A program made the position numbers and the translations under genes. From Paraspadella gotoi (lineage: Eukaryota; Animalia; Chaetognatha), in assembly GCA_051294375.1 (NCBI GenBank), contig CM119270.1, positions 16,557,693-16,621,304 on the forward strand: a stretch of 63,612 bases of DNA, in the 5' to 3' direction. The notes under the pieces are model-generated. The model was not told where the DNA came from. It was given only the letters and a program-made list of their open reading frames with translations, and made no database searches. How positions within the stretch are numbered: position 1 is the first letter of the stretch; the number at the start of each line of letters is the position of its first letter. Below are positions 1 through 55,549 of this stretch, piece by piece.

Positions 1-1014
1 ACTCGGCGATGATAGTAATGGCATGAAAATGGTTTTATTTTCTAATAATGAGACGAGTAGAATTTACAATATCTTTTAGCCATCGACCGAACAAATTTTC
101 TTTTTGTTTCTTTTTTTTTCTTTTTAAATTTTTCTTTTTTTATTTCGAATCTGGTGACGGAGTAAGCCGAAAATAAAACTTAATCTCTCTCAATGATCTA
201 TGATTTTTCTCGTCGTCAGCTCGTCATAATAGCGATGGGTGTAAAGCGATTATTTTTGAAACATTACAATTTCACCTAGTATTTAGCATAAAATACCCTT
301 TTGAATAATTGTAAATATATGGTAAATATATATACTAAGCATATTTTTTTTTAGGTTANNNNNNNNNNNNNNNNNNNNNNNNNNNNNNNNNNNNNNNNNN
401 NNNNNNNNNNNNNNNNNNNNNNNNNNNNNNNNNNNNNNNNNNNNNNNNNNNNNNNNNNNNNNNNNNNNNNNNNNNNNNNNNNNNNNNNNNNNNNNNNNNN
501 NNNNNNNNNNNNNNNNNNNNNNNNNNNNNNNNNNNNNNNNNNNNNNNNNNNNNNNNNNNNNNNNNNNNNNNNNNNNNNNNNNNNNNNCGAAATTCTTGAG
601 TCATTAAATACAAAGTCGACCATTTTTATTTTTTTGGAACCGAATTTTAAGTCGTATTTAATTGTGAAAAGGGAAGAAGCTTCATTATCTCGGTGCGTCT
701 TTGAAACTAATCAAGCAATTCACGGACAAAATTAATTAAAACTTCTGGTGTCATTTCTAAGCGAATCGAACAAAATCGGAACAAAAAAAAACTAACATAA
801 TCAAGGAACTAAAAAAAATGGCTTTTCATCGTCGAGCGGCTTTTGTAAGTAAAATGTTTTTTTTTTAAATTGTTGTCATAATTGTTTATTCTATAAATAA
901 ATTATTAATTGAATGTTTGAAACAATCGATATGGAATGAAGCCAATTAATTTTAATATCTTACAAAACTTAGACTTACCCTCTCACTTACCCTCACTCAC
1001 TTTCTCATCCTCAG

Positions 1015-1110
1015 AACGAAATGAAACATTCTATGAAAGAGCAAGAGCTTCACGCTCGCGCCGGAAACGCTCTCGCTCACGGAAACCTCGTGAGAGCCGT
1101 CAAGCTCGAG
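1015..1110 (+). CDS. Internal coding exon of an unidentified His-rich protein (NEMKHSMKEQELHARAGNALAHGNLVRAVKLE)
   Basis: Pyrimidine tract plus CAG acceptor ending at 1014 and GAG|gtgagt donor at 1111. The exon is 96 nt, phase 0-0, open, GC-richer than its flanks, and splices in frame to 1307. Confidence 0.65.
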
Positions 1111-1306
1111 GTGAGTTCCTTGTGAACTGATGTCACGTTAAAATGTTAGATGAAGTAACGTATAAACCGAGTTTGTTTATAATTTTTTTCCCTACTTGTT
1201 GTTTATTTCATTGGTAATCACCGCTAATTTCACTCGTGATAATCGTCACGTGAATTTTCACTATATTTCACAATCACGATTTGTTCACTCGTTCACTTCA
1301 CTTCAG

Positions 1307-1477: not shown

Positions 1478-4400
1478 TTACTGTTAAAAGATTCTTTCTA
1501 CTTTTAAGGAGACGAAAATCCAGAAATATCCATTCAAAAATTTGATAAAATAAGAATAATAATAATGAAAAAAAAAAGATATACAGTATTATAAATAATA
1601 TATTAAAATATAATAAAATAAATATAATATTATAAATAATAACCCTCTCCCATTAATAATATAATATTTTCATTTTTAGATTATTAAAAACCAAAATTAA
1701 TAAAAAATAATAATAATAATAATTTTTCTTAAAAAATATAGAATTTGTAATAAATAATTTTATTTTATTATTATAAAATCTAAGACTTAAAATAGTGAAA
1801 CAAGTAATTTTGCAATTTTCATAAATAAAATAAAGAACGAAATAAAATATGAAATAAAAATACTTTATAATGTTACAAATAAAACGAACAAACAAATACA
1901 GAATATGACAANNNNNNNNNNNNNNNNNNNNNNNNNNNNNNNNNNNNNNNNNNNNNNNNNNNNNNNNNNNNNNNNNNNNNNNNNNNNNNNNNNNNNNNNN
2001 NNNNNNNNNNNNNNNNNNNNNNNNNNNNNNNNNNNNNNNNNNNNNNNNNNNNNNNNNNNNNNNNNNNNNNNNNNNNNNNNNNNNNNNNNNNNNNNNNNNN
2101 NNNNNNNNNNNNNNNNNNNNNNNNNNNNNNNNNNNNNNNNNNNNNNNNNNNNNNNNNNNNNNNNNNNNNNNNNNNNNNNNNNNNNNNNNNNNNNNNNNNN
2201 NNNNNNNNNNNNNNNNNNNNNNNNNNNNNNNNNNNNNNNNNNNNNAGAACGAATTCGGCGAACGGATATAGCGAACAAATATGACGAAACGAGTCGAAGG
2301 TTCGCTGTTCATAATTCAAGAGAGGCAAAAGGCATCCAAAATTCGGCATTGTAAATTGACTTGGACACGTCGTTTTTTTTACAAAATTCTGACGATTTTT
2401 TAAAAAATTTACTTGGTCTCTTTGTACGTATATATTTGTATTTTTTAACTTGAATTACACGGATTAACAGATTTAACGAAATAGTTAACGAATACATCAT
2501 GCCTTAGAATTTATTTTTCAACAAAATATGACTGCGAGTCGCAGTCTGCGACGAATTTTTCGAGTTAGAAACTGGGAAATTATCTTTTGTTTTTTTCTTA
2601 ATAGATCTCTGCAGCTTCACTAGACGGCTCTAAGTGTTTCAGATGGCATTGAAAGATTTAATTTATAAACAAATGAACCGCGTTAAGACTTATTTTTTTT
2701 TTGGTTAAATTTGCAGTACTTATAAAAAATGTATAGTTAGCCATAATGTATAAAAAAATGTAAGGATAATGCGTTAAACTGGCGGTCGAAAACCGATAAC
2801 TGATTTTCATCATCTAATGTTGAGAATAATATGGAGAGAATAAGGGAGCTCCGAACCCCTGCGATAAGAATTGTTTAAAGTCTCTTGCTGCCCCGGGCGA
2901 GGGTGGGGGGGGGCGGGTTGTGAAAAAAGTTTTGAAAGAGTAAAAAAGGGGAAAGGGAGAGCGGGGAAAACGCCAGAAGGAAATTGGGCCACTGATGCGT
3001 CACCCAAGAAAATGTTTAAAAGTCAAAAGTCCTCATTAGCAGAGAAAAACTGTGAAATCTGAACTGGAAAGAGAGAGAGAGAGAGAGAGAGACCGGAGGG
3101 TGAGATGGAGACATGAAAGCGATAATTGATCTGCCGAACAAGGAGCAGATTTTAATGAGGCACTTGTCTCGTCTCTCGCTCTTCCGGTCGCGTCCCTTTA
3201 TCTTTTCTTTTAAATAAAGTTTACCTAATTCATTTTGTAGTTCATCAAGTGAAAGGAATTTTTTTTTTGGGGGGGGGGAGTTTGTGAAAAATGCACAAAC
3301 ATTTGGTGAAAAGTCTCTGGTCTCCATTTGTTTGAGGGACTTTTTTTTGGAATATGCCTGAGGAAAGAGAAAGGGTGAAACAGAGAGAGAGAGAGAGAGT
3401 TTTTAAGCGGATAATTGACCTATTTTACGCCTAACATGCGGACCATTTTTTCTCATAGTTGTCTTCTCAATACGAACCTCTGTTATCGCCTATAGCGCAC
3501 CATAATCTAGAATCTACACAAACTTTATATCGTATATATACGTTCCGTTATAATTTAAAACAAACCTAAAAATAACGAATAGATATAATATATAAAAGCG
3601 TTCACGGACAAAAGAAATATTCGAGACGAGGAAGTTAAATACGGTCAACACAGATGGCAAAGACGCACGCGGCGCTCGGGTTGCCATTCTCTGCGAACGG
3701 CAAAACGCCACACGCCGACAAGGGACGTTCCCCGCGGCGACCGAGAGACGAACAGACGTCGCCGATTTAGGTCCAATTAAATCGCAGGACTCTTTCACAT
3801 TCCACTTTCAATTCCACTTTCACCACTCTTCCTCGTTCCCCTCCCTCCGTTCTTTCTCTTCCCCCTTTCTTCCCCTCCTCCGCTTTTTGCGTCAATTCTG
3901 CGCCAACCCCCCCCCTCGCGCCACCGCATTGTGCCTCGTTGTCTCTCGTACGCCGCGCGATGCCAATTATCACTTAAATTCGGAAGAAAAAAAAAAAAGA
4001 AAAAGGACGGAGAAAATGGCCGCTAGAAAAGAAAAAAAAACAGAGTCATAATAAATAAACTTTTTTGGAGGAAAAAAAAAAAAGAGGAACCATTATGGAC
4101 AGCATTTGCCGCGGACTGAGGTCCGGGAAAACTGGGGTTGGAAAGGGTACAGGGGGCGGGAAGTGGAAAATGGGGGTGAATGTAGTTTGGCGGTTGAATA
4201 AAAGTGATGTCAATCGTCAGGAATCGCTTCCCCCGGGAGGGCGCGTGCTGGGGGCGGCCCTGCGGCGGTGGCTTCCGCGGGGCGGCCCCGAGGGGCAGGC
4301 AAATCCTTACCGCCTAGGGCGGCCCCCTGTAAGCCTCTTTTTTTGAGCCCCAAGGGGCCACTCCAGGGGGGATCCCCCCTGCGGGCTAGAAAAACCTTTC

Positions 4401-4619
4401 CCCCGGGCTACCCCCAGGGGGATGGATTCCTGCCCCTGGAACGGTCTCTCTCCCTCTATCTCTCTTTCCTTTCTACTCTCTCTTTTCTCTCTCCCCTCTC
4501 TTTCTTTTCTTAACTATTTCTATTTTCATCTTTTCATGTATAATAAAATATAAAAAATAAAAATAAATTATTTTTCACGTTCAATTAATCAATCAATGAA
4601 CCAATTAGCTGCCCACCAA

Positions 4620-5150
4620 TACCAACTTGCATATTTTGGTCACCTTGCATAATTTAGTCAAATGACATTAATTTGGTCAACTGACAAAATTTGCGTCAAC
4701 TGATATAATTTAATCACTTTTAAAATTTGGTAAACTTTTATAATTTGGTTAACTTTCATTAATTTGGTAATTTTTTTTATAATTTAGTTAACTTGCTTAA
4801 TTTGTAAACCTTCTAATTTGCTAAACTTTTATATTTGGTAAACTTTAATTAATTTGGGTAACTTTTTTATGATTTGGTAAACTTTCATATTTGATAAACT
4901 TTCATAGGTTTAATTCAATTTCATTATTCAATCAACTCGCCATAATTTGGTTCAACTTGCATAATATGGTCAATTTGGCCTAGATTTTGGTTCAAACTTG
5001 GTCATAAATTGGTCAACTGTATAAATTGGTTAATTTGCTTAATTAGTCACAGTCATAATTTGGTCAAACTTGCATTAATTTGGTCAACCTAGATAATTTG
5101 GAAACTTGGATAATTTGGTTTAAATTAATTAATTTGGTCAACAATCAACT
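4620..5150. repeat. ~18-bp minisatellite (ATAATTTGGTCAACTTGC-like) inside the hAT-like element
   Basis: Many degenerate taatttggt(c/a)aactt units; the mirror copy is at about 48570-49200. Confidence 0.85.
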
Positions 5151-5328
5151 TAACAATTAGCTAATTATAATTTCATTCAATAGAAATTAAAAAAAGATGA
5201 GAAAAAGAGTGCAAAAAAATTTTTTTAATAATGTTCAAGTAAAAGTAAACTTTTGTTTCCATTAAAACTTCCGACTTTCACTTGCATACTTTTCTTCCAC
5301 ACACAAAATTTTTTCTTAATTCATTTAT

Positions 5329-5756
5329 GAATTGGTACAACCAATTATAAAAATTATCCATTCATTTAATTAAATAAAGCTTATCTTTGACCCCTGACTT
5401 TGGACAGGCTTTGGTCGCGTTTAAGGCCTCCATCAACTCTTTACAAAGATAATTGACATTAGCAGGTCCCTGCAAGCCTTCAAACAGACTCTCTCACAAG
5501 TCCGTTTATTCACTCCAGAGTACCTGGCTTCCCTATCAATTGAAGTGGAAAATATTTTCAAAAGAATGTTTCAATTGTATGAAAAAGACCACTCCCTTAA
5601 GTATTAGATCGGGAAATACTTATTGTACTCCGCACTAGCATCAAAATACAAGGAGGCTAAATTTTATTGAAATTGGTACAACCAATATAAAATTATCCAT
5701 TCATTTAATAAATAAGCTATCTTGCCCCTACTTTTTGGACAGGCTTTGGTGGTTTA
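5329..5756 (-). mobile_element. Twister-containing short retroelement, 1.25-mer (period about 341 nt)
   Basis: ttggtacaacc recurs at 5332 and 5673. Flanked by tttatgaa (5324-5331 and 5753-5760). Absent from the matching position of the second hAT-like copy. Homologous to 10098-10302, 52428-52730 and 55258-55549. Confidence 0.8.
5382..5451 (-). ncRNA. Putative P5-type twister ribozyme (indel-noisy copy)
   Basis: Minus strand reads GAUGG AGGCCU UAA ... AC CAAAG CCUG UCCAAAGU CAGG, enclosed by an AUCUU(U)G/CAA(A)GAU stem. Confidence 0.6.
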
Positions 5757-7737
5757 TGAAATTTTAAATAATTAGGAATAAGGAGTAGGGATGGTTTTAA
5801 TTTTTTAATTAAACTTATAAAAAATTAATTAAATAAAAAATATTAATTGATAATTAATTATATCAGTTTTTAAGTTCTGCTCCCATATTAGCATAAACTC
5901 CAATTTATTCGTGATTAAATAAATGGATTGATAAAAATTTTATGTGTGGGTAGAAAAGTATCAAGCTTGTGGGGAAAATTTGGGAGCTAGATATAAAGTT
6001 TTTGCTCACTCTCTCTCTCAAATCGTCAGCCTCTACTTAACAACGTGAGTTCATTCTTAAGCAATCTTACAAACTTATGATTATTAATTACCAAATCTTA
6101 TATTAAAAAAAATGTTGATTGTTACGATGTTAGAACTCATTTAATGTTGCATGAATAGTTTTTATCTGTTTTTTTGGGGGGACTCCATAACTGCATTTAA
6201 GGGAGGTCTGTCAGTGTCAACTGCTATTATTTGTTTGGTGATTTATTTAATTTCTTTTTAAAAATCAAAATTATGAATATTTTTCTTAAAAAATTATGTC
6301 TCTCTCTATCATGTCAGTCTCATCAAGTATATCATCCAAACAAAAAAGAAAGAAAAAAAAAGAAAAAAAAAAAGAAAAAAGATAAAAAAATAAAACAATG
6401 ACTGATTAGCTTTTTACCATAAATTTTCCTTGTGCTACCTCCTTACATTGTTTGTTAAAACTTGTTTCTATATCTTTTAACTTGAAATAAAATAATTGCG
6501 CGTATAAAAAATACAAATATTTATAATTTTTAGATAAAATAATGGAATAAATTGAGTTAACAATAATTTGAAAAATGTATTTATTTAATTCAGTTACATA
6601 AAACAAGTCTTGAAGAGAGAGAAAAAAAGAGAGAGAGAAAAAAAGAAAGAGAATGAGAAAAAGAAGAGAGAAAAAAAAGAGAGAGAGAAAAACAAAAGAG
6701 AAAGAGAAGAGAGAGTAACAGACAGGAAAAAATATTTTCAGATATGATAAATAATCAAAAAGTATATTTTCTCATCTAAACTTTGCTCTCTCTTTAAACT
6801 CGCCCCTGGGGGAGCATTTTTTGCTCCCCAAGGGGTTACCCCCAGGGGCAGACTTTTTTTGCCCATGCGGGGCTAAGCATTTAGGGGCGCCCTAAGTAGA
6901 CCCAAATGTTGCGCGCCCCATGGGGGAACCCCCCTGGGCGGCCCCCCTGAGGCAATCAGAGGGGCGCCCCTCAATGACCATTTTGCTGCTCCCCCTGAAC
7001 AGTCTGCCCCCTGGGGCCGCCCTAGAGCCGCCCCGTGGGGCGGAGGATTTTTGGGAGATGACATATCTTCAAAGTTGAAATGAAATGAAGTGAGTGAATG
7101 AGTACAAACCGGTGTCGGGGTTGGGGTGGGGTTGGAAATCAGATTGTAATGATGTTTTTTTTAATAGTGGAAAGTTCTAAATCTTTTAAATCTCGAGTCA
7201 TGCGTTATTTTTTTTTAAATAATATTCAAATAATGAATTTCCTATGCCATTTCGGAAATAATTAATTGGTAAGGATCATCCGCTCAAAGCCGTGAAAGCT
7301 CAAGTGATTCTGTGGAACGATCGAAAATCGACAAAATTTGATCCTTGAGGAACAAAAACAATTTGACAACGTGGCGAAGAAAAGCGTGACGAGCGTTACA
7401 GAGTTTGACAAGCGTGACGTTATAGTGAAGAGAAAGGGACCGAATAATTTCTTAAAAAGCAATTTGAAATAAATACGTTCGCCGAAGAATTAGATTAGGT
7501 TAAGTTAATATTGATCTTGTTAATATTGGTAATTTGGTAGAACATAAAAAAAAATTCAGTATTTTTGTAGTCATAATGTAAAACTGCCGATAAATTTTAT
7601 CTGTAAATTGATTTATTAAATCGGCGGACATAAGCTAAGCAAGGAATTTAAGAAAATAAATAAAAATGGTGGGCTTTTTTTAAAATAAACGCTACACCGA
7701 AAAATAGAAGGAAGCTTTTACCACCAATTACCAGCCA

Positions 7738-10097: not shown

Positions 10098-10302
10098 TAT
10101 ACCACTTCATGGATAGGGAAGCCAGGTGCTCTGGGAGTGAATAAACGAGACTGTGAGAGAGTCTTGGTTGAAAGCTTGCAGGGACCTGCTATGTCATTTT
10201 CTCGTAAGAGTGATGGTGGCCTGAAACCACCCAAGCCTGTCCAAGATAACTTAGCCTTACTTATTAAATGAATTGATAATTTGGTTGAACCAATTTCATA
10301 AA
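10098..10302 (+). mobile_element. 5'-truncated copy of the twister-containing repeat; ribozyme broken by a ~12-nt deletion in L4/P4
   Basis: Reverse complement of the 52.4-kb copy. Reads gagtgatggtggcctgaaaccacccaagcctgtccaa|gata and ends ccaatttcataa. Confidence 0.8.
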
Positions 10303-19564: not shown

Positions 19565-21253
19565 TAATTTTTTACAGATTTCTGAAAAGGAATACTATTT
19601 GTTAAATTAGATAAGGTCAAAGTTTTTTTAATTGTTATTAATCCTGGCGCTCGTTATGAAATAAGAATTAAATTGTTTATAAATCTATTTAGTAATTATT
19701 TAATTAAACAAATGATTAATACCTTAATTCATTCTCCTCATGCGGAACATCTTTTCATTCCTCAGAAATCTCTCAGAAGCCTCGACACGAACTCACCCTT
19801 CTCATCCCTTACTTACTCTCCCTTACTCCTTACTTACCCCTTACTCCTTACTTACCCCTAACTCACCCCTATCCCAATCCAAGGATGAAATGTTTCATCG
19901 TTCGATTCCATTTTTATCGCTTCCGACGGAAAGAGAGAATTCCACGATTCCATTCTCCCCCCCCAAATAAAACCCCAAAAAAGGGGGGATTCCATTTTGT
20001 CGAGATCTAAGCACCATATTTGGCGTCGTAAATGGCGTCATTTCGGTTTCACGTGGGTCGTAAAAAAAGGGAGATTCCAATTCCTTGACTCGACTTTTTT
20101 TTCTTTTTTCTTTCCTCCATTTTGGGTTTTTTTTTTCTTTCTCATCATTCAGTTTCTCCCTTTAAAGTTTATATTTCATTTTATATACAAGAAAAAAACT
20201 AAAAACATTNNNNNNNNNNNNNNNNNNNNNNNNNNNNNNNNNNNNNNNNNNNNNNNNNNNNNNNNNNNNNNNNNNNNNNNNNNNNNNNNNNNNNNNNNNN
20301 NNNNNNNNNNNNNNNNNNNNNNNNNNNNNNNNNNNNNNNNNNNNNNNNNNNNNNNNNNNNNNNNNNNNNNNNNNNNNNNNNNNNNNNNNNNNNNNNNNNN
20401 NNNNNNNNNNNNNNNNNNNNNNNNNNNNNNNNNNNNNNNNNNNNNNNNNNNNNNNNNNNNNNNNNNNNNNNNNNNNNNNNNNNNNNNNNNNNNNNNNNNN
20501 NNNNNNNNNNNNNNNNNNNNNNNNNNNNNNNNNNNNNNNNNNNNNNNNNNNNNNNNNNNNNNNNNNNNNNNNNNNNNNNNNNNNNNNNNNNNNNNNNNNN
20601 NNNNNNNNNNNNNNNNNNNNNNNNNNNNNNNNNNNNNNNNNNNNNNNNNNNNNNNNNNNNNNNNNNNNNNNNNNNNNNNNNNNNNGGGCGGCGCCGTGGC
20701 GCGCCGCTTTATAATTCCGCCGGCGCCGTCATATTTTACTGTTGGCGACGCAAAGGATTTCGTAGTCTTCGTCGACGTCATCGTCGCGGTTTTATTATCG
20801 TCATCTTCGTCGTCAGTCGACGACATTATCCAACTTGTTCTAATCTATAGGAATCCTATTTACTTAGGAAGCCATACAAATTGTTATCAATGTTTAAAAT
20901 ATTATCATCAAAATTAGAAACAAGTTTAAATTCACGATTTTTTAAAAATATTCTAATTAAAAACAATACGACTGTCTAAATCTCTTTAATTACATCAAGG
21001 ATTGTCGTCAGTAGTCAGTAGGGCGCTGCGACTCGTCGCTTCGAACAAAAGGCAAAAAGTGATAAAAANNNNNNNNNNNNNNNNNNNNNNNNNNNNNNNN
21101 NNNNNNNNNNNNNNNNNNNNNNNNNNNNNNNNNNNNNNNNNNNNNNNNNNNNNNNNNNNNNNNNNNNNNNNNNNNNNNNNNNNNNNNNNNNNNNNNNNNN
21201 NNNNNNNNNNNNNNNNNNNNNNNNNNNNNNNNNNNNNNNNNNNNNNNNNNNNN

Positions 21254-21408
21254 CGCTCCGACCTCCTGCCTCACTCTGAATCTTTCTGTCCCTCTCTTGC
21301 TCTGTCTGTCTTTTTCATCTTCCATAGGGTCTCCTGCCGGCGGCTTTTTTTTTTTTCTGTCTGTCTGTTTTCTCCTCAGAATTTAGAGATTTCTCATTTT
21401 TGTCTTTC

Positions 21409-21466
<58 letters not shown>

Positions 21467-22894
21467 CTCTCTCTCGTCTCTTCTTCTGCGTCTCGCGCGA
21501 GTGTTTCAAGCATCGGTTTCATTACAGTGTTTCGTTCTTCCCGCCGGGCAGGAGACCCTATGAAGATGAAAAAAGACAGACAGAGCAAGAGAGGACAGGA
21601 AAGATTCAGAGTGAGGCAGGAGGTCGGAGCGGTAGGGCGCTGCGACTCGTCGTTCGAACAAAAGGCGCCAAAGTTGATAAAAAAGCGGGGTATCTCTCTC
21701 TTTTTGNNNNNNNNNNNNNNNNNNNNNNNNNAGAAAGAAAGAAAGAAAGAAAGAAAGAAAGGAAGAAAAAAGAGAAAACAAAATGATAAAAAAACAGAAA
21801 TAAAAGAAACAGAGAAAAACAGAAAGCTGGCGAGAAACAACGACACTTATTTTTTTTCATTTAAATAACAAGATTATTTAAAAAAAAGGAGAGGAAAAGA
21901 GAAAGAAATAGCGGGAGAAAAGAAAAAAGAGAGAGAGAGAGAGTGAGAGCACTAAACGTCCGCTTACAACGGAAGTATCTGTCCACCCTTTTGATGAAAA
22001 AGAGTTGGGAATGACAAGGAAGGAAAATTGGGGATTGTCATAGTTTATATGGAAAAATAAAAAAAGAGAAAAGTGTTGTGTTTACGATAAGATGGAAAAG
22101 AACACGCAGGGCTCGTTGGCGCGCCGCTTTGATCTCATTAAAAAGGAATAAAATGGGGTCGACAGACATTGCTATCAAATATGCATAGATACGACGCCGC
22201 CAAAGAGACGCAATCCTCTTTTTATTGATAAATAATATTTTTTTTCTCACCTCGTTTTAATTTTAATGTTTCTCTTTTCTTTCTTTATTAGGTTCGATAA
22301 AGTTGTTCGAAAGAATTACATATGCGTATTTGTCATCGTTAATTCTTGGCCAAAATGGTATCGTTATCAAAAGATAATGCTTTTTTTTTGTGGGATTAAA
22401 CGCTGCCGAAAGGTTATTATGAAAAATCATTGCGAATTGAAGATTTATTTTTTAGTTTTCAAAATTTTAAAGAGTTTGTACAATGTACATTAATAGGCAT
22501 GTTCGTCAAAATTAAACGACGTGAAATGATTTGACAATGTTAAGAAAGCAAAAAAAAAAACATTTTCATAATTGTACATCCGAAAATTATGAAAGAAAAA
22601 AAAGGAAACAGAGAAAACGAAAAGAAAATCAAGTTTGGAAAAAAGAGAGAAAAAAAATTGACAAAGAAAAAAGTAAAAGGAATCATTTTCTGAGGATTTT
22701 GAACAGTGAAAATTTGTGAACATAAAAACACTAATCAAGTCCGATCCTCTCTTTGCGGCGTGTGATAAAATGTGATAAAGTCACAATGGAACTGAACAGT
22801 TATCGTGAGATCAAAAGGAAAAAAAAAAGCGGAGGACGGATCCGCGAAAAAAAGATCGTCACTGGATTTTAGTGATCGTAAAACAGTCGTTGTT

Positions 22895-22927
<33 letters not shown>

Positions 22928-23294
22928 TCTTGAATTGAATGCAACCGGGGTCATTTCTTCGAACACCTGCCACAATAGTTTTATTGCACAATGGAAGTTC
23001 TTTCTTTCAGAGACAAACTCGAAATTCCAGCCTTTGCTCCCGGGGAAAATTTGGCCATAATTACTCTTTATTCTATCGCTCTTTTCTTTATTTTCTTTCT
23101 TTCTTTCTTTCTTCTTCTTTCTTTCTTCTTTCTTCTTTCTTTCTTTCTTTCTTTCTTTCTTCTTTCTTTCTTCTTTCTTTCTTCTTTCTTTTTCTTTCTT
23201 TCTTTTCTTTCTTTCTTCTCTTTCTATGTATTCTTACTGCTCTTTTTACTCTTAAAATTCTAACTTTTCTTAACGTCTTTCCTACCTTCTCTCT

Positions 23295-23342
<48 letters not shown>

Positions 23343-24712
23343 TCTCTCTCTCTCTCTCTCTCTCCCCCCTTAGTCATCAACGTTCTTTCTTTTCAAAAAA
23401 ATATGTCCCCACCCGATCGATTTTATTTCTCGTTCGACGCCGGTCATTAATTTACGAAATTCTCCGAAACGACGACGACGACGGACGACGACGACGCGAC
23501 TAGACGACACGAGACGACGACACACGCCCAGACAATTTTACGTTCACTAATCCCAGCGATCTTTTTTTCGCGGATCCGTCCTCCGCTTTTTTTTTCCTTT
23601 TGATCTCACGATAACTGTTCAGTTCCATTGTGACCTTTTATTACACATTTTATACAACGCCGCAAAGAGAGGATCGGACTTGATTAGTGTTTTTATGTTT
23701 CACAATTTTCACTGTTCAAAATCCTCAGAAAATGATTCCTTTACTTTTTCTTTGTCAATTTTTTTTTCTCTCTTTTTTCCAAAACTTGATTTCTTTCGTT
23801 TTCTCTGTTTCCTTTTTTTTCTTTCATAATTTCGGATGTACAATTATGAAAATGTTTTTTTTTTTGCTTTCTTAACATTGTCAACCATTTCACGTCGTTT
23901 AATTTGACGAACATGCCTATTAATGTACATTGTACAAACTCTTTAAAATTTTGAAAACTAAAAAATAAATCTCAATTCGCAATGATTTTTCATAATAACC
24001 TTTCGGCAGCGTTTAATCCCACAAAAAAAAAGCATTATCTTTTGATAACGTACCATTTTGGCCAAGAATTAACGATGAAAATACGCATATGTAATTCTTT
24101 CGAACAACTTATCGAACTAATAAAGAAAGAAAAGAGAAACATTAAAATTAAAACCGAGTGAGAAAAAAAAATATTATTTATCATAAAAAGAGGATTGCGT
24201 CTCTTTGGCGCGTCCGTTCTATGCATTATTTGATAGCAATGTCTGTCGACCCCATTTATTCCTTTTTAATGAGATCAAAGCGGCGCAGCCAACGAGCCTG
24301 CGTGTTCTTTTCCATCTTATCGTAAACACAACACTTTTTCTCTTTTTTTTATTTTTCCAATATAACACATCCCCATTTTCCTCCTTGTCATTCCAATCTT
24401 TTTCATCAAAGGGTGGACAGATACTTCCGTTGTAAGCGGACGTTCAGTGCTCTCACTCTCTCTCTCTCTCTTTTTTCTTTCTCCCGCTATTTCTTTCTCT
24501 TTTCTCTCCTTTTTTTTAAATAATCGTGTTATTTAAATGAAAAAAAGATAGTTCGTTGTTTCTCGCCAGCTTTCTGTTTTCTCTGTTTCTTTTATTTCGT
24601 TTTTTTATCATTTTGTTTTCTCTTTTTTCTTCCTTTTTTCTTTCTTTCTTTTTTCTTTCTTTTTTTTTTATTCGTCTGTCTGTTTTTCTTCATCAATTTA
24701 AATTTCTCATTT

Positions 24713-24750
<38 letters not shown>

Positions 24751-24995
24751 CTCTCTCTCTCGTCTCTCTTCTTCTCTTCTTCTCTCTCTCTTCTCTGCGT
24801 CTCGCGGCGAAGTGTTTTCAACATCGGTTTCATTGACAGTTTGTTTCGTCTTCCCGCCGGCAGGAGACCCTATGGAAGATGAAAAAGAAGACAGAGCAAG
24901 AGAGGACGAAAAGATTCAGAGTGAGGCAGGAGTCGGAGGCGGTAGGGCGCTGCGACTCGTCGCTTCGAACAAAAGGCAAAAAGTGATAAAAACGT
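21254..24995. repeat. Complex inverted/direct duplication, probably an assembly artefact
   Basis: About 21732-22925 is the reverse complement of about 23466-24660; 21345-21683 is directly repeated at 24660-24992; 21254-21343 is inverted at 21541-21631. 25-N gaps at 21707 and 24996. Confidence 0.8.
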
Positions 24996-29599: not shown

Positions 29600-31442
29600 G
29601 TCTTTCTTTCTTTCTTTCTGTCTTTCTTTCTTTCTTTCTTTCTCCCTTTTTTTCTTTCTTTCTCTAGTTTCACTGTCGCTTTTTTATTTTCATTTTATTT
29701 TATTATCTTCTATATAGTTTTTTTATTTTCTTAATTTCTAGTTCCCTCATAAAAATTCAAGTCTTTTTTATGTCATTCTCCCGTTTTTAATTGGATTCTC
29801 TCCTCGGATTCCCGACCAAAAAAAATCTTCACTAAATTTATCGTGGTTGTCCTTTTTTCTGATTTCGTGTTCTTCCCTTCTCACAACTTCCTTAATTGCT
29901 GGTTTTCCTTTTTTTTTCTCTTTTTTTTTTTCAAGAAAGCGGCAAATAAATTCGTAGAAATTAGATTCATTGGCAATTTCTTAGGGAGGCTTGTCTGTAC
30001 ATTCATTCGATTTGTTAATTGTATTTCATTAATTTGAAACTGTAGTAGGGCCCTAAATGTTTCTTTTTCGAGGATAAAAAACTCTCGATTTCTAGTTGCT
30101 TCAAAAAACGAGCGGACAAATCCGATGGTTGGCAATTTGCTATTGCGGATGCTCTTAATTATTTAAAATTAATCAAAATAAATGTTTAAATAACTGAAGA
30201 AAAAAATAAAAGTACACAAAAGTGATAAAAAAAACATGAAGTAACTCATGTTTTAAGTCAACTTTTATTATTTTAAGTTTTAAATTGTCAACTTTAATGT
30301 CTTTAATACTTTTCTGACTATTGCTATATGCAAATGTATTTAAGATTAAAACTCAGAAAAAAAATATCGAATAGAAGAAGAAAGTCGAGGAAGAAAACTA
30401 ACATACAATTTTTCTTATTTTATTCATGGTCTAACCCTGTCCCAGATTTAACCTTTAATAATACCTGGTTAAACTTTAGACTTTTACGGACTTATTAGTC
30501 GAGATTCTCATTGGCGCTTTCGTCGCCGCCGCCACCGCCGCCGCAGCCGCCGCAGCCGCCGCAGCCGCCGACTTCTCGACCTTGGTAAGTCTCTCTCCAA
30601 CGCCGCCGGAGAAAGACGATCGCCCATGACTCACCCGCCGATTTTACGGTGAGGTTCTTGACGCGGCGACACAAAAGTGGGAAGAAAGAAATGAGGAAAT
30701 TCGATTTTTAATGACCTCAACTTTTTTCTCTCTCTCGAGGGGTTGAGAAGGGGTCGAGAGGGAGTCGAAGGGTGTCTTAGAGGGGCGCGGAAGGGGGAGG
30801 TAATCATTCACGACGGGTGATTCTTTGATTAGACTGATTTTTAGGTAAGGACGAGTCGATCATCGAACGCGGCTCGGGTAAGTCAAGATCAGAAATGAGG
30901 AATTTAGTTTTGAAGTTGAGGAAGGAAGATAATTCTGGATTTTGACGTGGTTTACAATACGTATATTACAATACAATACAATACTATACAAGTCCCGGTG
31001 ATATCTCCTGCATTTACAAACATAAGAATAAAAGAAGATTGATTGATCTTTTAGTTTTTCCTTTTAGTTCAAATTTTGAAAAAAAAAACTTTCAACCATA
31101 GCCTATGGCATAGAGAGAGATGATTGATATGTTTTATCAACGGAATTTCCAATCGATTGCCATCTCAGTCTAAAATATGGAACGAGAATTAAGAGAATTT
31201 AAATGGTTATTTATGTTTATTTTGTTTGTTTACCTTTAGAGCAACCAATATGATATAATTACAAACATTTATTTGCTTAAAAGCAACCAAACGACGTTGC
31301 CACCTCAGAGATCAGATATGGAAAAAGTTAAAAATAAATAAATAAACCAAAAAAACGACGATGAAAAGAAAATGTTTTCGGTACAAGATGATTATCTCGG
31401 GAAAGCGCGACTTTATCGAAACCGATCTCTCTCTCCGGCGAG

Positions 31443-36145
<4,703 letters not shown>

Positions 36146-38429: not shown

Positions 38430-41800
<3,371 letters not shown>

Positions 41801-46808: not shown

Positions 46809-49800
46809 CGAGATTATGTCACTCTCCCCAAATCCTCCGCCCCGCGGCGGCCGCTTCTAGGGGCGGCCCCAGGGGGCAGGGACTATTCCAGGGGGAGCAG
46901 CGCCAAAATGGTCCATTAAGAGGTGGGCGCCTCCCTCTAGGATTGGCCTCCAGGGAGGACCCGCCCCAGGAGGAGGGTTCCTCCCCCCTGGGCGGCCAAC
47001 ATTTTGGGTCTATTTAGGGGCCCCCTTAATGCCTTAAGCCCCCTCGGGGACCAAAAAAAAGTCTGGCCCCCTGGAGGGTAAAACCCCCTTGTAGGGAGCA
47101 AAAAAACTTCTCCCCCAGGGCAGCGAGGTTAAAAGAGAGGCCAAGTTTCTAGATGAGAATCAAATATTACTTTCTGAACGATGGTTTAATTATATCTTGA
47201 GAAATATTTCTCCCTGTCTGCTTATCTCTCTTTCTTCTTTCCCTTTCTTTTTTTTTTTCTCCTCTCTCTTTTTCTCTCTTCTCTCTTTTTTCTTACACAT
47301 TCACTTCTTTCTTTTTTTTCTCTTCCTCTTCTTTTTTTCTCGTCTCTATAGAATTCTTTTTTGTTCTCTCTCTCTATTCAAGACTTGTTTTTATGGTTTA
47401 AAAGAAATTTAAAATATACCATATTTTTTTCAAAATTATTGTTTAACATACATTATATTTCCATTATCTTTATCGAAAAAAATTATAATATTTGTATTTT
47501 TATAACCAAATTATTTTTATTCAGTTAAACAAAAAGATATAGAAAAACAATTTTTAGCAAAACAAAGATATGAATAAGGACGTAGCAAACCACACAAAAT
47601 TTAGCATGGAGAGTTAAAAAAAAGCTAATCGAGTCATTATGTACTTACTTTTTTTGAGTCTTTTTTTAGATCTTATCTTTTTTTTATAATTTTTTTTTCT
47701 TTTTCTAGTATTTTGTTGAGGTAATATGGACATGACTTGAACGTAGACGTGATAGGAGAGTTTAATTTTATTTTATTAAAAAATTATTTCATATTTGATT
47801 TTTTTAAAAAAAAAATTAAAATAAAATCACCAAAAAACAAAATAATGAGGCAAGCTGGACTGACAAGACCTACTTAGATGAATTATGGAAGTCCCACCCA
47901 AAAAAAAAACAATAAAAAAACATATTTCATCAACTTAAGACGACGTTCTACATCGTAAAATAAAAATTTTATTTGTAACATTTAAGGGAATTGGTAATTT
48001 AATAATCGTCAGTTTGTTAGATTGCTTAAAGAGAGAATGAACTCACGTTGTTAGTTTAAGAGGCTGACGAATTTGAGAGAATAGAAGAAGAGTGAGCAAA
48101 AACTATATAAATCTAGCTCAATCAACATATACTTTTCTACCCACACACAAAATTTATTAATTCCAAACAGATCACATACTATTTTAAATCACGAATAAAT
48201 TAGAGAGTTTAATGAGACTAATATAGGGATGACTTTAAAAGACCTATAGAATAATTAAATTAAAATATAATTCAAATTAAAAAATAATATTTAATAAAAA
48301 TATATTTATTATAAGTGAATTTAAAAAAAATTTTAACCATCCCTACTCTATTATTCTATAAAATTTATTTTAAGATAAAATTTTGTTGTGTGGGTTTAGG
48401 AAAAATAAAAGTGGAGTTTTAATGGAAAAAAAAAAAAAGATTAACCTTTTACATTGAACATTATTTAAAAAAAATTTCTTTTTTGACTCTTAATTTCTCT
48501 CTTCTTTTTTTTTATTATTTCTATCGGATTAATATTAAATTAATTAATTAGATAATTGTTTTTGAAGTTTGATTGTTGACCAAAATTATATAAGTTTGAC
48601 CAAATTATCCCAAGTTTCCAAAATTATCTAAGTTGAACCAAATTATGCAAGTTTGACCAAATTATGACTGTTGAACTAAAAATTAAGCAAAATTAACAAT
48701 TGTTATACCAGATTGAGACTAATTTATGCCAAGATTTGACAAATCTAATTGAAAAATTAGAGACACAAAAATAAATTACAAGTTTTGACCACAAATTATG
48801 CGAGATTAGGGATAATTTATATAATGGCAAATTAGAGAGAAAAATAATTTAAAATTTAAAATTATGAAAAAAAGAGAGAAAATATTATATTACCAAATAA
48901 ATGAAAGTTTTACCCAAAATTATATAGAAAAAGTTATATCAAATTATTAAAGTATTATTAACCAAATTATTTTAAAGTTTAGCCAATTATGAAGTATTAA
49001 CCAAATAAGCAAAGAGAATAATAAAACTAAAATTATTAAAAAAAAATATAAACAAAATAATATGAAAAGATTTATCCCCAAAATTCATAAAAGTTTACCA
49101 AATTTTAAAAGTAGTATTAATTTATATCAGTTTGACCAATTATGTCAGTTGACAAAAAAATTAAATGAGTCCAAAATGAAAAAACTAAATTATGCAAGGT
49201 GAACAAAAGTATAATGACAACGTAAGGAAATAATTGAGATGCAGGCTATTTGGTTTAATTGAATAGATTAAAATTGAAAGTGAAAATATTATTTTATTTA
49301 ATATATTATTTTATTGTAATATTGAAAAGATGAAAAATATAGAAAAATAAGATAGAGAAAAACGGAAGAGAGAAAGAAAAAAGAAGAAGAAAGAAGAAAA
49401 GGAAAAAGAGAAGAAGAAGTAGAGGGAGATCGAGAAGAGATAAGAGAGGGATAGAAAAGAGCAGAACCGTTACCAGGTAAGAGAGACAAGACGAAAAAAA
49501 TACCATCCCCAAACATAAAAAAAAGAAAAAGAAAGAAGAAAAAAGACACACAACAAAGAGGAGGAAACAAGGATTTTTGTATTACTAAGACCCTGAAAAG
49601 CAGAGAGAAGAAAAAATATCACACACACAATAAGAGAGAGGAGAAAGAAAAAAAGATAAGATGCACCCCTTGGCGAGGCTCCCCAAAAAAAAGAGAGCGC
49701 TACAGGGTAGAGCGCGCCGCCCACTAGGCAAAAACCAACAAACAAACACGACAACGGGATTAAGGAATTTGCCTGCCTCGGGGCGGCCCCGGGGCTAACT

Positions 49801-49867
49801 CCGCGGGGCCGCCCCCAGCACCGCCCCCCGGGGGAAAGCGATTTCTGATAAGGATCGACATCACTTG
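46809..49867 (-). mobile_element. Non-autonomous hAT-like DNA transposon, copy 2 (indel-noisy)
   Basis: Reverse complement of 4202-7070 without the nested insertion. Target duplication cgctcaa(c) at 46801-46808 and from 49868; ends cgagattatgtc ... gacatcacttg. Confidence 0.8.
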
Positions 49868-52427: not shown

Positions 52428-52730
52428 TTATGAAATTGGTACAACCAATATAAAAATTATCCATTCATTTAATAAATAAGCTATCTTGCCCCTGACTTTG
52501 GACAGGCTTTGGTGGTGTAAGGCCTCCATCACTCTTACAAGATAATGACAAAGCAGATCCCTGCAAGCTTTCAATCAAGACTCTCTCACAGTCCCGTTTA
52601 TTCACTCCCAGAGTACCTGGCTTCCCTATCAATGAAGTGGTATAATGTTTCAAAGAATGTTTCAATAGTATGAAAAGACCACTATACAATATATACTATA
52701 TTGTATTCCGCACTAGCATCAAAATACAAG
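52428..52730 (-). mobile_element. Near-full copy of the twister-containing short retroelement
   Basis: High similarity to 5329-5652; shares the end ttatgaaattggtacaacc. Confidence 0.85.
52482..52544 (-). ncRNA. Putative P5-type twister ribozyme (cleanest copy; the A8 equivalent is C here)
   Basis: UAUCUUG UAAGAGU GAUGG AGGCCU UAC ACC AC CAAAG CCUG UCCAAAGU CAGG GG CAAGAUA; P5, P4, T1 (CCA/UGG) and T2 (AC/GU) all pair. Confidence 0.65.
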
Positions 52731-55257: not shown

Positions 55258-55549
55258 TTATGAAATTAGTACAACCAATATAAAAATTATTTATTTATTT
55301 ATTAAATAATCTATCTTGCCCCCGGACTTTGGACACAGGTTATGTCATCATTCTTGAAGGATAATACCATCGCAGGATCCCGCGTGCTTTCAATCAAGAC
55401 TCTCTCACAGTCTCGTTTATTCACTCCCAGAGCTTCCCTATCGTGTTCCCTATCTAAAGTGGTTTAATATTTCAACGAAAGTATCAATTGTATAAAAGGA
55501 CCACATCATTAAGTATTACATCGGGAAATACTATATTGTACTACGCACT
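55258..55549 (-). mobile_element. Older, diverged copy of the twister-containing repeat (ribozyme core decayed)
   Basis: ttatgaaattagtacaacc start, caagactctctcacagtctcgtttattcactcccagag core, tcgggaaatactatattgtact end. Confidence 0.8.

Follow-up and report, generated by a model that had tools for sequence, protein, structure and literature searches.

A variant twister core in P5 order in an abundant repeat of Paraspadella gotoi, with possible dimer switching and probable Penelope-type mobilisation

A stretch of 63,612 nucleotides from the chaetognath Paraspadella gotoi (assembly GCA_051294375.1, contig CM119270.1, positions 16,557,693 to 16,621,304; hereafter the window, whose own numbering is used throughout) carries a twister-type ribozyme core in P5 order on its minus strand, at 52482-52544. 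The core lies in a near-unit-length copy of a dispersed repeat (52428-52730, minus strand; 303 bases of a unit of about 326), which is inserted in an AT-rich minisatellite. A twister-type fold in this order is supported, at the level of sequence, by the Rfam ranking, a descriptor that fails on shuffled DNA, the activities of rice double mutants, the variants of phage twisters and the ends of Naiad elements. We regard descent of the core from a real twister as close to certain, and the majority form of the family probably cuts in some context. As for the element as a whole, we incline slightly to the view that it is a non-autonomous mini-element served by a Penelope-type, probably Naiad-type, enzyme, and that its ribozyme would be switched by dimerisation.

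A twister-type core in P5 order

A preliminary description of this DNA had placed a minus-strand core in P5 order between 52544 and 52482, and the sequence bears this out. The domain is closed by the 7-base-pair P5 stem described there (52544-52538 with 52488-52482), whose pair probabilities are 0.66-1.0 in ViennaRNA-type folding. Along the minus strand then follow a P2 strand (52534-52531), the general-base G (52530) with a conserved A and the T1 strand (together 52526-52530; roles according to PMC5408937 and PMC9901934, both cited in part), a perfect 6-base palindrome in the register of P1 (52520-52525) and the cut site, predicted between U52519 and A52518 from the twister consensus. The remaining part (52491-52513) holds the T2 strand, a C-G pair with its triloop, P4, and the 8-base loop L4 bearing the T1 and T2 partners. 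T2 comprises two pairs (52513-52512 with 52496-52495), P4 joins 52506-52503 to 52494-52491, and T1 has three pairs plus an A-A. The conserved G, the A at the cut and the next A are kept in the family majority, while the copy at 52.5 kb has a C for the second A. P2 had been seen as two pairs plus a mismatch or bulge; the bulge stands, and the stem is better read as three pairs with one bulged base, which ViennaRNA does not predict and which recurs in three Naiad twisters. The triloop, said to be kept as in rice, differs by one base (U18A). No intramolecular stem P1 was found in the domain, in agreement with the earlier view of a nearly absent P1 with a 6-nucleotide loop, but that view had overlooked that the hexamer is a palindrome in the P1 register with zero loop, so that the stem could form only if two copies came together. 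The unit is also predicted to contain a long imperfect helix that brackets the ribozyme domain (52462-52481 with about 52617-52640, minus strand).

When a 96-base region was compared with Rfam, Twister-P5 (RF02684) came out top of 4227 families with 20.8 bits and an E-value of 0.009, the region having been picked after the fact and the model ignoring the pseudoknots and the P5 stem. As the gathering cut-off is 37.6 bits, the covariance-model check proposed with the preliminary description did not return a gathering-level twister match; an Rfam search with 501 bases gave no twister match. Textbook-like phage P1 twisters likewise fall below their Rfam cut-off. A descriptor built on the family-invariant positions, demanding P4, both pseudoknots, the catalytic G and A and the P5 order, matched only the copies at 52.5 kb and 5.4 kb in the window, and none of 20,000 shuffles of the element or 30 block shuffles of the window; it was written after the candidate had been seen. 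Hence the twister-type fold suggested at the outset is upheld. Because two membership tests fail, namely an intramolecular P1 and the Rfam cut-off, the core is filed as a variant and not as a canonical member of Twister P5.

The paired changes relative to rice in P4, T1 and T2, to which the preliminary description had drawn attention, are each tolerated in rice mutagenesis and recur as pairs in phage twisters. According to the mutant matrix in the supplement of PMC5113685, the columns of which were counted by hand, the relative activity was 0.93 for G22U/C33A (P4), 0.83 for C27A/G47U (T1) and 0.89 for the T2 swap G13A/C31U. The P2 double mutants C9A/G44U and A10C/U43G retained 0.63 and 0.64, and the triloop mutant U18A 0.95; a one-base shortening of P2 is absent from the matrix. 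Bulges and deletions in P1 and P2 are reported to be tolerated, for P1-type twisters only (PMC11662667, cited in part). The change A8C, in contrast to these, left 0.07. Position 8 (52517) is A in 99% of the read depth, and the C is private to the 52.5-kb copy; because of this A8C change, the copy is probably dead, while the family is probably not. Thus the fold of the ribozyme first described at 52.5 kb holds, while the probable inactivity of this particular copy had been overlooked, as had the type of element. The next commonest variants in the domain are at the P2 bulge (10.8%) and the P4-P5 linker (15.5%).

A scan of viral contigs in which the T1 and T2 partners were left free gave 48 stretches, 38 of them distinct. 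Watson-Crick T1 occurred in 6 of the 7 perfect-P4 matches versus 9 of the 31 others, with the same counts for T2 (Fisher p 0.0096 each), and five of the perfect-P4 matches scored 44.7-55.5 bits on twister-P1, under its cut-off of 67.2. In a metagenome scan with a pattern lacking the T1 strand (85 stretches, 69 distinct), 3 of 5 distinct perfect-P4 matches had a T1 strand 11-12 bases downstream, in P1 order, together with a closing P1 region, against 1 of 64 other matches, at 5 bases. Pair counts on our alignment A2 are partly circular, its rows having been picked for perfect P4. The GTDB scan returned chance matches only (103 stretches, 102 distinct, one with perfect P4 and failing T2). P5-order patterns in viral contigs gave three matches lacking P4, which were judged to be chance, and a further P5-order scan of viral contigs gave none. 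Rfam detected no twister at E up to 1 in six metagenome loci, and among the phage and metagenome candidates it missed L117 and L021/L019 or scored them weakly.

Six P1-type twisters were noted in phage contigs, in L100, L102 and L130 at 289-340 (plus strand), in L113 and L133 at 297-348 (minus strand) and in L117 near 293-345 (plus strand). All six are under the Rfam cut-off or missed, and the core variants of the window family recur in L117. Three metagenome P1-type candidates have a short P2: L019 at about 1060-1135 (minus strand), L049 at about 2135-2195 (plus strand) and L021 at about 895-955 (plus strand). The L049 candidate lies between phage-like genes, and that in L019 ends at the start of an open reading frame which we take to resemble a single-strand binding protein.

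The palindrome, the repeat family and the Penelope link

The palindrome takes up all six bases that separate the T1 strand from the cut nucleotide, and since it leaves zero loop, one molecule cannot close P1 whereas two can share it. In the predicted monomer fold the P4 strand is engaged by half of the palindrome, leaving P4 a probability of only 0.14, compared with 0.61-1.0 in nine phage and metagenome twisters. An unconstrained fold of two copies predicts a 6-pair trans P1 and a trans P5, the probability of both P4 stems being 0.98-0.99 for two of the three sequence windows used. A precedent exists in the hammerheads of Penelope elements, which have a short palindromic helix and are reported to cut as dimers (PMC6765202, PMC4209133, both cited in part).

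Six pieces of the repeat are found in the window. That the repeat is dispersed, as described earlier, is confirmed; its unit, put then at about 330 nucleotides, is about 326 bases, counting 303 in the 52.5-kb copy, 13 deleted from it and 10 at the head-to-tail joint. A partial tandem of 1.3 units comprises a full unit at 5325-5652 (minus strand), whose twister core has indels in P5 and P2, and a partial upstream unit with the head-to-tail joint at 5653-5756 (minus strand), whose 5' end lies 0-3 bases from the predicted cut. In this indel-rich tandem the cut-to-cut unit measures 333 bases. A 5'-truncated copy at 10098-10301 (plus strand) has a ribozyme broken in L4 and P4, with T2 and the 3' strand of P4 lost, an older near-full copy at 55258-55549 (minus strand) has lost the core by deletion, and a decayed fragment remains at 35472-35556 (plus strand). 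The AA after the cut site, ascribed earlier to the copies at 5.4, 5.75 and 10.2 kb, is indeed retained in all three. No window copy contains an intact ribozyme: that at 52.5 kb has the C at position 8, that at 5.75 kb is without its 5' half, and the others show indels or decay.

The family is very abundant. In run X1, 24,519 of 7,042,937 contigs lie on the repeat, and runs X5 and X9, which come from two further studies of that organism, agree with this, X9 being only guessed to be RNA. Runs X10, X12 and X13, from other labelled organisms or with a small share, gave 1, 3 and 1 contigs and were not used as evidence. Contigs leave the element at 52428-52433 into unlike AT-rich flanks (at least 726 contigs in four rows of X1, and likewise in X5 and X9), so the 3' end is fixed; it lies just past a 6-base-pair hairpin and has no poly(A) or simple-repeat tail (52428-52449, minus strand). 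Read depth falls toward 52730, so the 5' end is variable. Therefore the ribozyme lies on the sense strand of an element that is truncated from its 5' side. Beyond 52730, in at least 26 contigs (3 of 12 joints among those listed), about 10 bases lead over to the beginning of the following unit, and the same head-to-tail join was found at 5.65 kb; a strand change occurred at 3 of 15 joints among those listed. Naiad insertions are characterised by a tail of 30-40 bases and by (TA)n targets; here the flanks are AT-rich but not (TA)n in the window, with no second fixed 3' end among the rows listed. Most copies contain the uncut site, and among the five visible 5' ends in the window one (5.75 kb) lies within 3 bases of the predicted cut. 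The best-supported 5' breakpoints among those listed, 52504 and 52508, to which we return below, lie 14 and 10 bases beyond the predicted cut, where P4 has its 5' margin.

No coding homology was detected in the repeat by Pfam and a homolog search of its one long frame. This 76-codon frame crosses the ribozyme, and a YIG-like word follows; as an endonuclease remnant it was rejected, having no Pfam match and no homolog, and its two matches to repeat proteins were judged artefacts of summed weak repeats. A solo long terminal repeat (LTR) was also rejected: TG and CA ends are present, but there is no target duplication at 52.5 kb and the 52730 end leads into the next unit. A hammerhead core was absent from both strands of two copies and from the Rfam scans.

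Penelope and Naiad insertions are described as showing 5' truncation, partial tandems and inverted joints, all traits of this repeat, and Naiads are reported to lack hammerheads (PMC8557442, cited in part). From the 54 Naiad families in File S5 of that paper, the last approximately 450 characters of 11, named by metadata order, were read by eye. Five of the 11 consensus ends (Mgal, Bpla, Mphi, Scon and Mmer, all bivalve) carry a P5-order twister without a canonical P1, with P5, P2, T2 and P4 covarying. In each, a perfect palindrome of 6-12 bases, unlike those of the others, lies no more than 2 bases from the T1 strand; three share the 3-pair P2, the bulge position and T2 of the window family, and two its P4. 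Motif searches of the Naiad supplement with the window family's own loop letters found no twister. In the records before the headers Naiad_Sglo and Naiad_Mcor, two oyster-group ends have in common another, conserved GC-rich motif, which includes a 10-base palindrome in roughly the corresponding position; by eye it is neither twister nor hammerhead, and it is possibly another self-cleaving fold. In the window family, 91 bases separate the cut from the fixed 3' end, and in an anole Penelope element the hammerhead cut lies 85-92 bases, by subtraction, from the start of reverse transcription (PMC11167929, cited in part); the agreement may be a coincidence. Taken as a whole, Penelope-type mobilisation of the repeat is probable.

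We outline a conditional course of events. Transcription would run through tandem copies, and two ribozymes on one transcript would swap strands via the palindrome, each cutting at U|A. This would release unit-length RNA bearing 5'-OH and cyclic-phosphate ends, which a host ligase would close into a circle; such a circular intermediate is plausible, at a little under even odds. A ribozyme without a partner, whether in a circle or in a single copy, would be largely inactive, as its P4 strand would be occupied by half of the palindrome. Reverse transcription by a Penelope-type enzyme, primed at AT-rich DNA, would begin from a constant internal position some 90 bases beyond the cut and so produce insertions that are 5'-truncated, close to unit length or longer than a unit. 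A stricter version is rather doubtful, namely that this is an obligate strand-swapped dimer twister, the first natural one, driving an animal retrozyme in which tandems are cut and circularised while uncut single copies template a Naiad reverse transcriptase.

Competing explanations

Several results count against the reading favoured here, and a part of them concerns the fold itself. Nothing reached the Rfam gathering level over the whole window, the folding energy of the 63-mer was no better than that of shuffles (z -0.52), and the circular unit was only modestly stable (z -2.3 and -1.6). A chance resemblance within an ordinary repeat would accommodate the lack of a folding signal, the score below the cut-off and an E-value which, if scaled to all families over the whole window, becomes about 6 by our own arithmetic; yet with 0 of 20,000 shuffles matching the descriptor, and with the same paired variants recurring in phage twisters and in Naiad ends, it is hardly credible. 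Other results bear on the dimer. Its P4 falls to 0.23 in the third sequence window, and its energy gain of -12.3 kcal/mol was reached by 48 of 500 shuffles and is not significant. Among reordered hexamers, 125 of 156 non-palindromic orders also gave a dimer P4 above 0.8, and 39 of 180 orders lowered the monomer P4 as strongly as the native hexamer does. Of the 180 orders that these letters allow, 24 are palindromes (a chance of 13%), as are 982 of the 59,101 hexamers in the window. Moreover, P1 is reported to be dispensable in vitro (PMC5408937, cited in part), so the monomer may cut. In the same element the twister could accordingly work as a monomer without P1, a mini-twister whose palindrome is incidental or only damps the rate; the tolerance of P2 bulges agrees with this, and the two pseudoknots expected to stabilise the native fold are not scored by ViennaRNA. 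It is nevertheless unlikely in view of the low monomer P4 beside the nine comparison twisters, the exact register with zero loop, the palindromes at a like place in all five Naiad twisters and the uncut site contained in most insertions. Because the shuffle and order controls are unfavourable and P1 is reported to be dispensable in vitro, the case for a dimer rests on register, precedent and recurrence, and we put dimer dependence, as modelled, at an even chance.

The remaining adverse results concern mobilisation. No twister was seen in the displayed part of 6 of the 11 Naiad ends, the Naiad twisters have a second segment between palindrome and cut so that their register differs, and the longer Naiad palindromes could be plain hairpins. 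No reverse-transcriptase partner was found in the 29 of 121 long window frames that were scanned, no high-agreement loose contig end pointed to an autonomous partner, and the 5' breakpoints among the X1 matches listed fall at 52504 and 52508 (45 and 46 contigs), not at the cut, 52518. The last point is what would be expected if the twister were a vestige of a Naiad-type terminal repeat that no longer cuts, the element spreading from uncut RNA. All window copies are damaged, and cleavage by the anole hammerhead was reported not to be needed for insertion in vitro (PMC11167929, cited in part). This vestige is improbable all the same, as the majority form keeps every catalytic and pseudoknot position and the 5.75-kb end does lie within 3 bases of the cut. 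It is also conceivable that a real ribozyme sits in an element moved by a long interspersed nuclear element (LINE), as with Perere-3/RTE, or by a rolling-circle DNA transposase (Helitron, Replitron). Twisters have been reported at RTE 5' ends (PMC8501958, cited in part). In favour of this reading, the 5.75-kb end coincides with the cut, and the 11 bases flanking it repeat the 3' junction. Tandems and a terminal hairpin would suit rolling-circle elements too. However, the ribozyme lies near the 3' end and is internal in most copies, a poly(A) or simple-repeat tail is missing, and a ribozyme on the strand with the fixed 3' end would serve no purpose in a DNA transposon. The uncut site is present in most copies, which is at odds with the Perere-3 model and implies that the templates were mostly uncut or rejoined RNA; transport by a LINE or a rolling-circle transposase is thus very improbable. 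Compared with these, a Penelope-served mini-element with a dimer-switched twister remains the reading to which we incline.

Surroundings, significance and comparison with known systems

Elsewhere in the window, a repeat of about 2.9 kb occurs in two diverged and oppositely oriented copies (4202-7065 and 46815-49866), with GC-rich ends and an internal satellite of 18-19 bases. The twister tandem is inserted in the former copy and absent from the latter; this paralogous site without the insertion, at 48.4 kb, has diverged too far for the target duplication to be defined from it. A Fez-family zinc-finger gene of at least two long exons lies at 38430-41800 (plus strand), with fingers that share 87-95% identity with animal Fez proteins. 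The near-identical duplications, inverted as well as direct, that lie beside N gaps at 21018-24992 and 31436-36144 may be assembly artefacts. No tRNA was found in the window.

A literature search, largely confined to open-access papers, returned no twister in a Penelope element or retrozyme and no description of a natural twister dimer, and the accessible part of Eckert 2023 makes no mention of palindromic or dimeric twisters. Animal P5 twisters of this kind may already be present in the alignments of the original twister paper; the layout, that of a Penelope element or retrozyme with a twister where the hammerhead normally sits, is likely to be new here. As the animal retrozymes and Penelope ends described so far use hammerheads, a twister in that slot would mean that self-cleavage is needed and not a given ribozyme class. 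The purpose of Penelope ribozymes also becomes testable with a fast and well-mapped ribozyme in a 63-base construct. A dimer-dependent twister, if true, would be a new ribozyme behaviour; in that case the same palindrome switch would have arisen convergently in hammerheads and twisters of Penelope-type elements, and Naiads, reported to lack a ribozyme, would instead have changed its class. Because the family is very abundant yet lies below the Rfam cut-offs, animal twisters are probably under-counted.

The following likenesses are drawn from sources cited in part. With Twister P5 (RF02684, clan CL00120; PMC5408937) the core shares the P5 order, P4, T1, T2, the catalytic G and A and the U|A site, but it differs in having a 6-base palindrome for P1, a bulged P2 of three pairs, A-U pairs in T1 and T2 and a score below the cut-off. 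Metazoan non-LTR retrozymes (PMC7229834, PMC7761336; bioRxiv 10.64898/2026.07.22.740005) share with the repeat a non-coding unit of 150-400 bases, a GC content of 36%, monomers and head-to-tail joins and a single ribozyme per unit; theirs is a type I hammerhead, whereas the window family has a twister and a circular RNA that is only predicted. Minimal hammerheads in the pseudo-long terminal repeats (pLTRs) of Penelope elements (PMC4209133, PMC6765202) are likewise situated close to the 3' end, and their short palindromic helix depends on a second copy, although they are of another ribozyme class and the window repeat is without an open reading frame.

Naiad (PMC8557442) resembles the repeat in 5' truncation, partial tandems, inverted joints, very high copy number and the lack of a hammerhead. 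It encodes a reverse transcriptase and a GIY-YIG domain, whereas the window repeat has neither and could be at most a non-autonomous derivative. The Naiad twisters have a P3 stem and a longer P1 segment, unlike the window family, and the likeness between them was read by eye from unaligned sequences. Finally, the twister T-variants of Schistosoma Perere-3 (PMC8501958) likewise place a twister with a degenerate P1 in an animal retroelement. They are, however, of P1 type and stand at the 5' end of an autonomous LINE, where the cut defines the start of the insertion, while the window ribozyme lies 91 bases from the 3' end.
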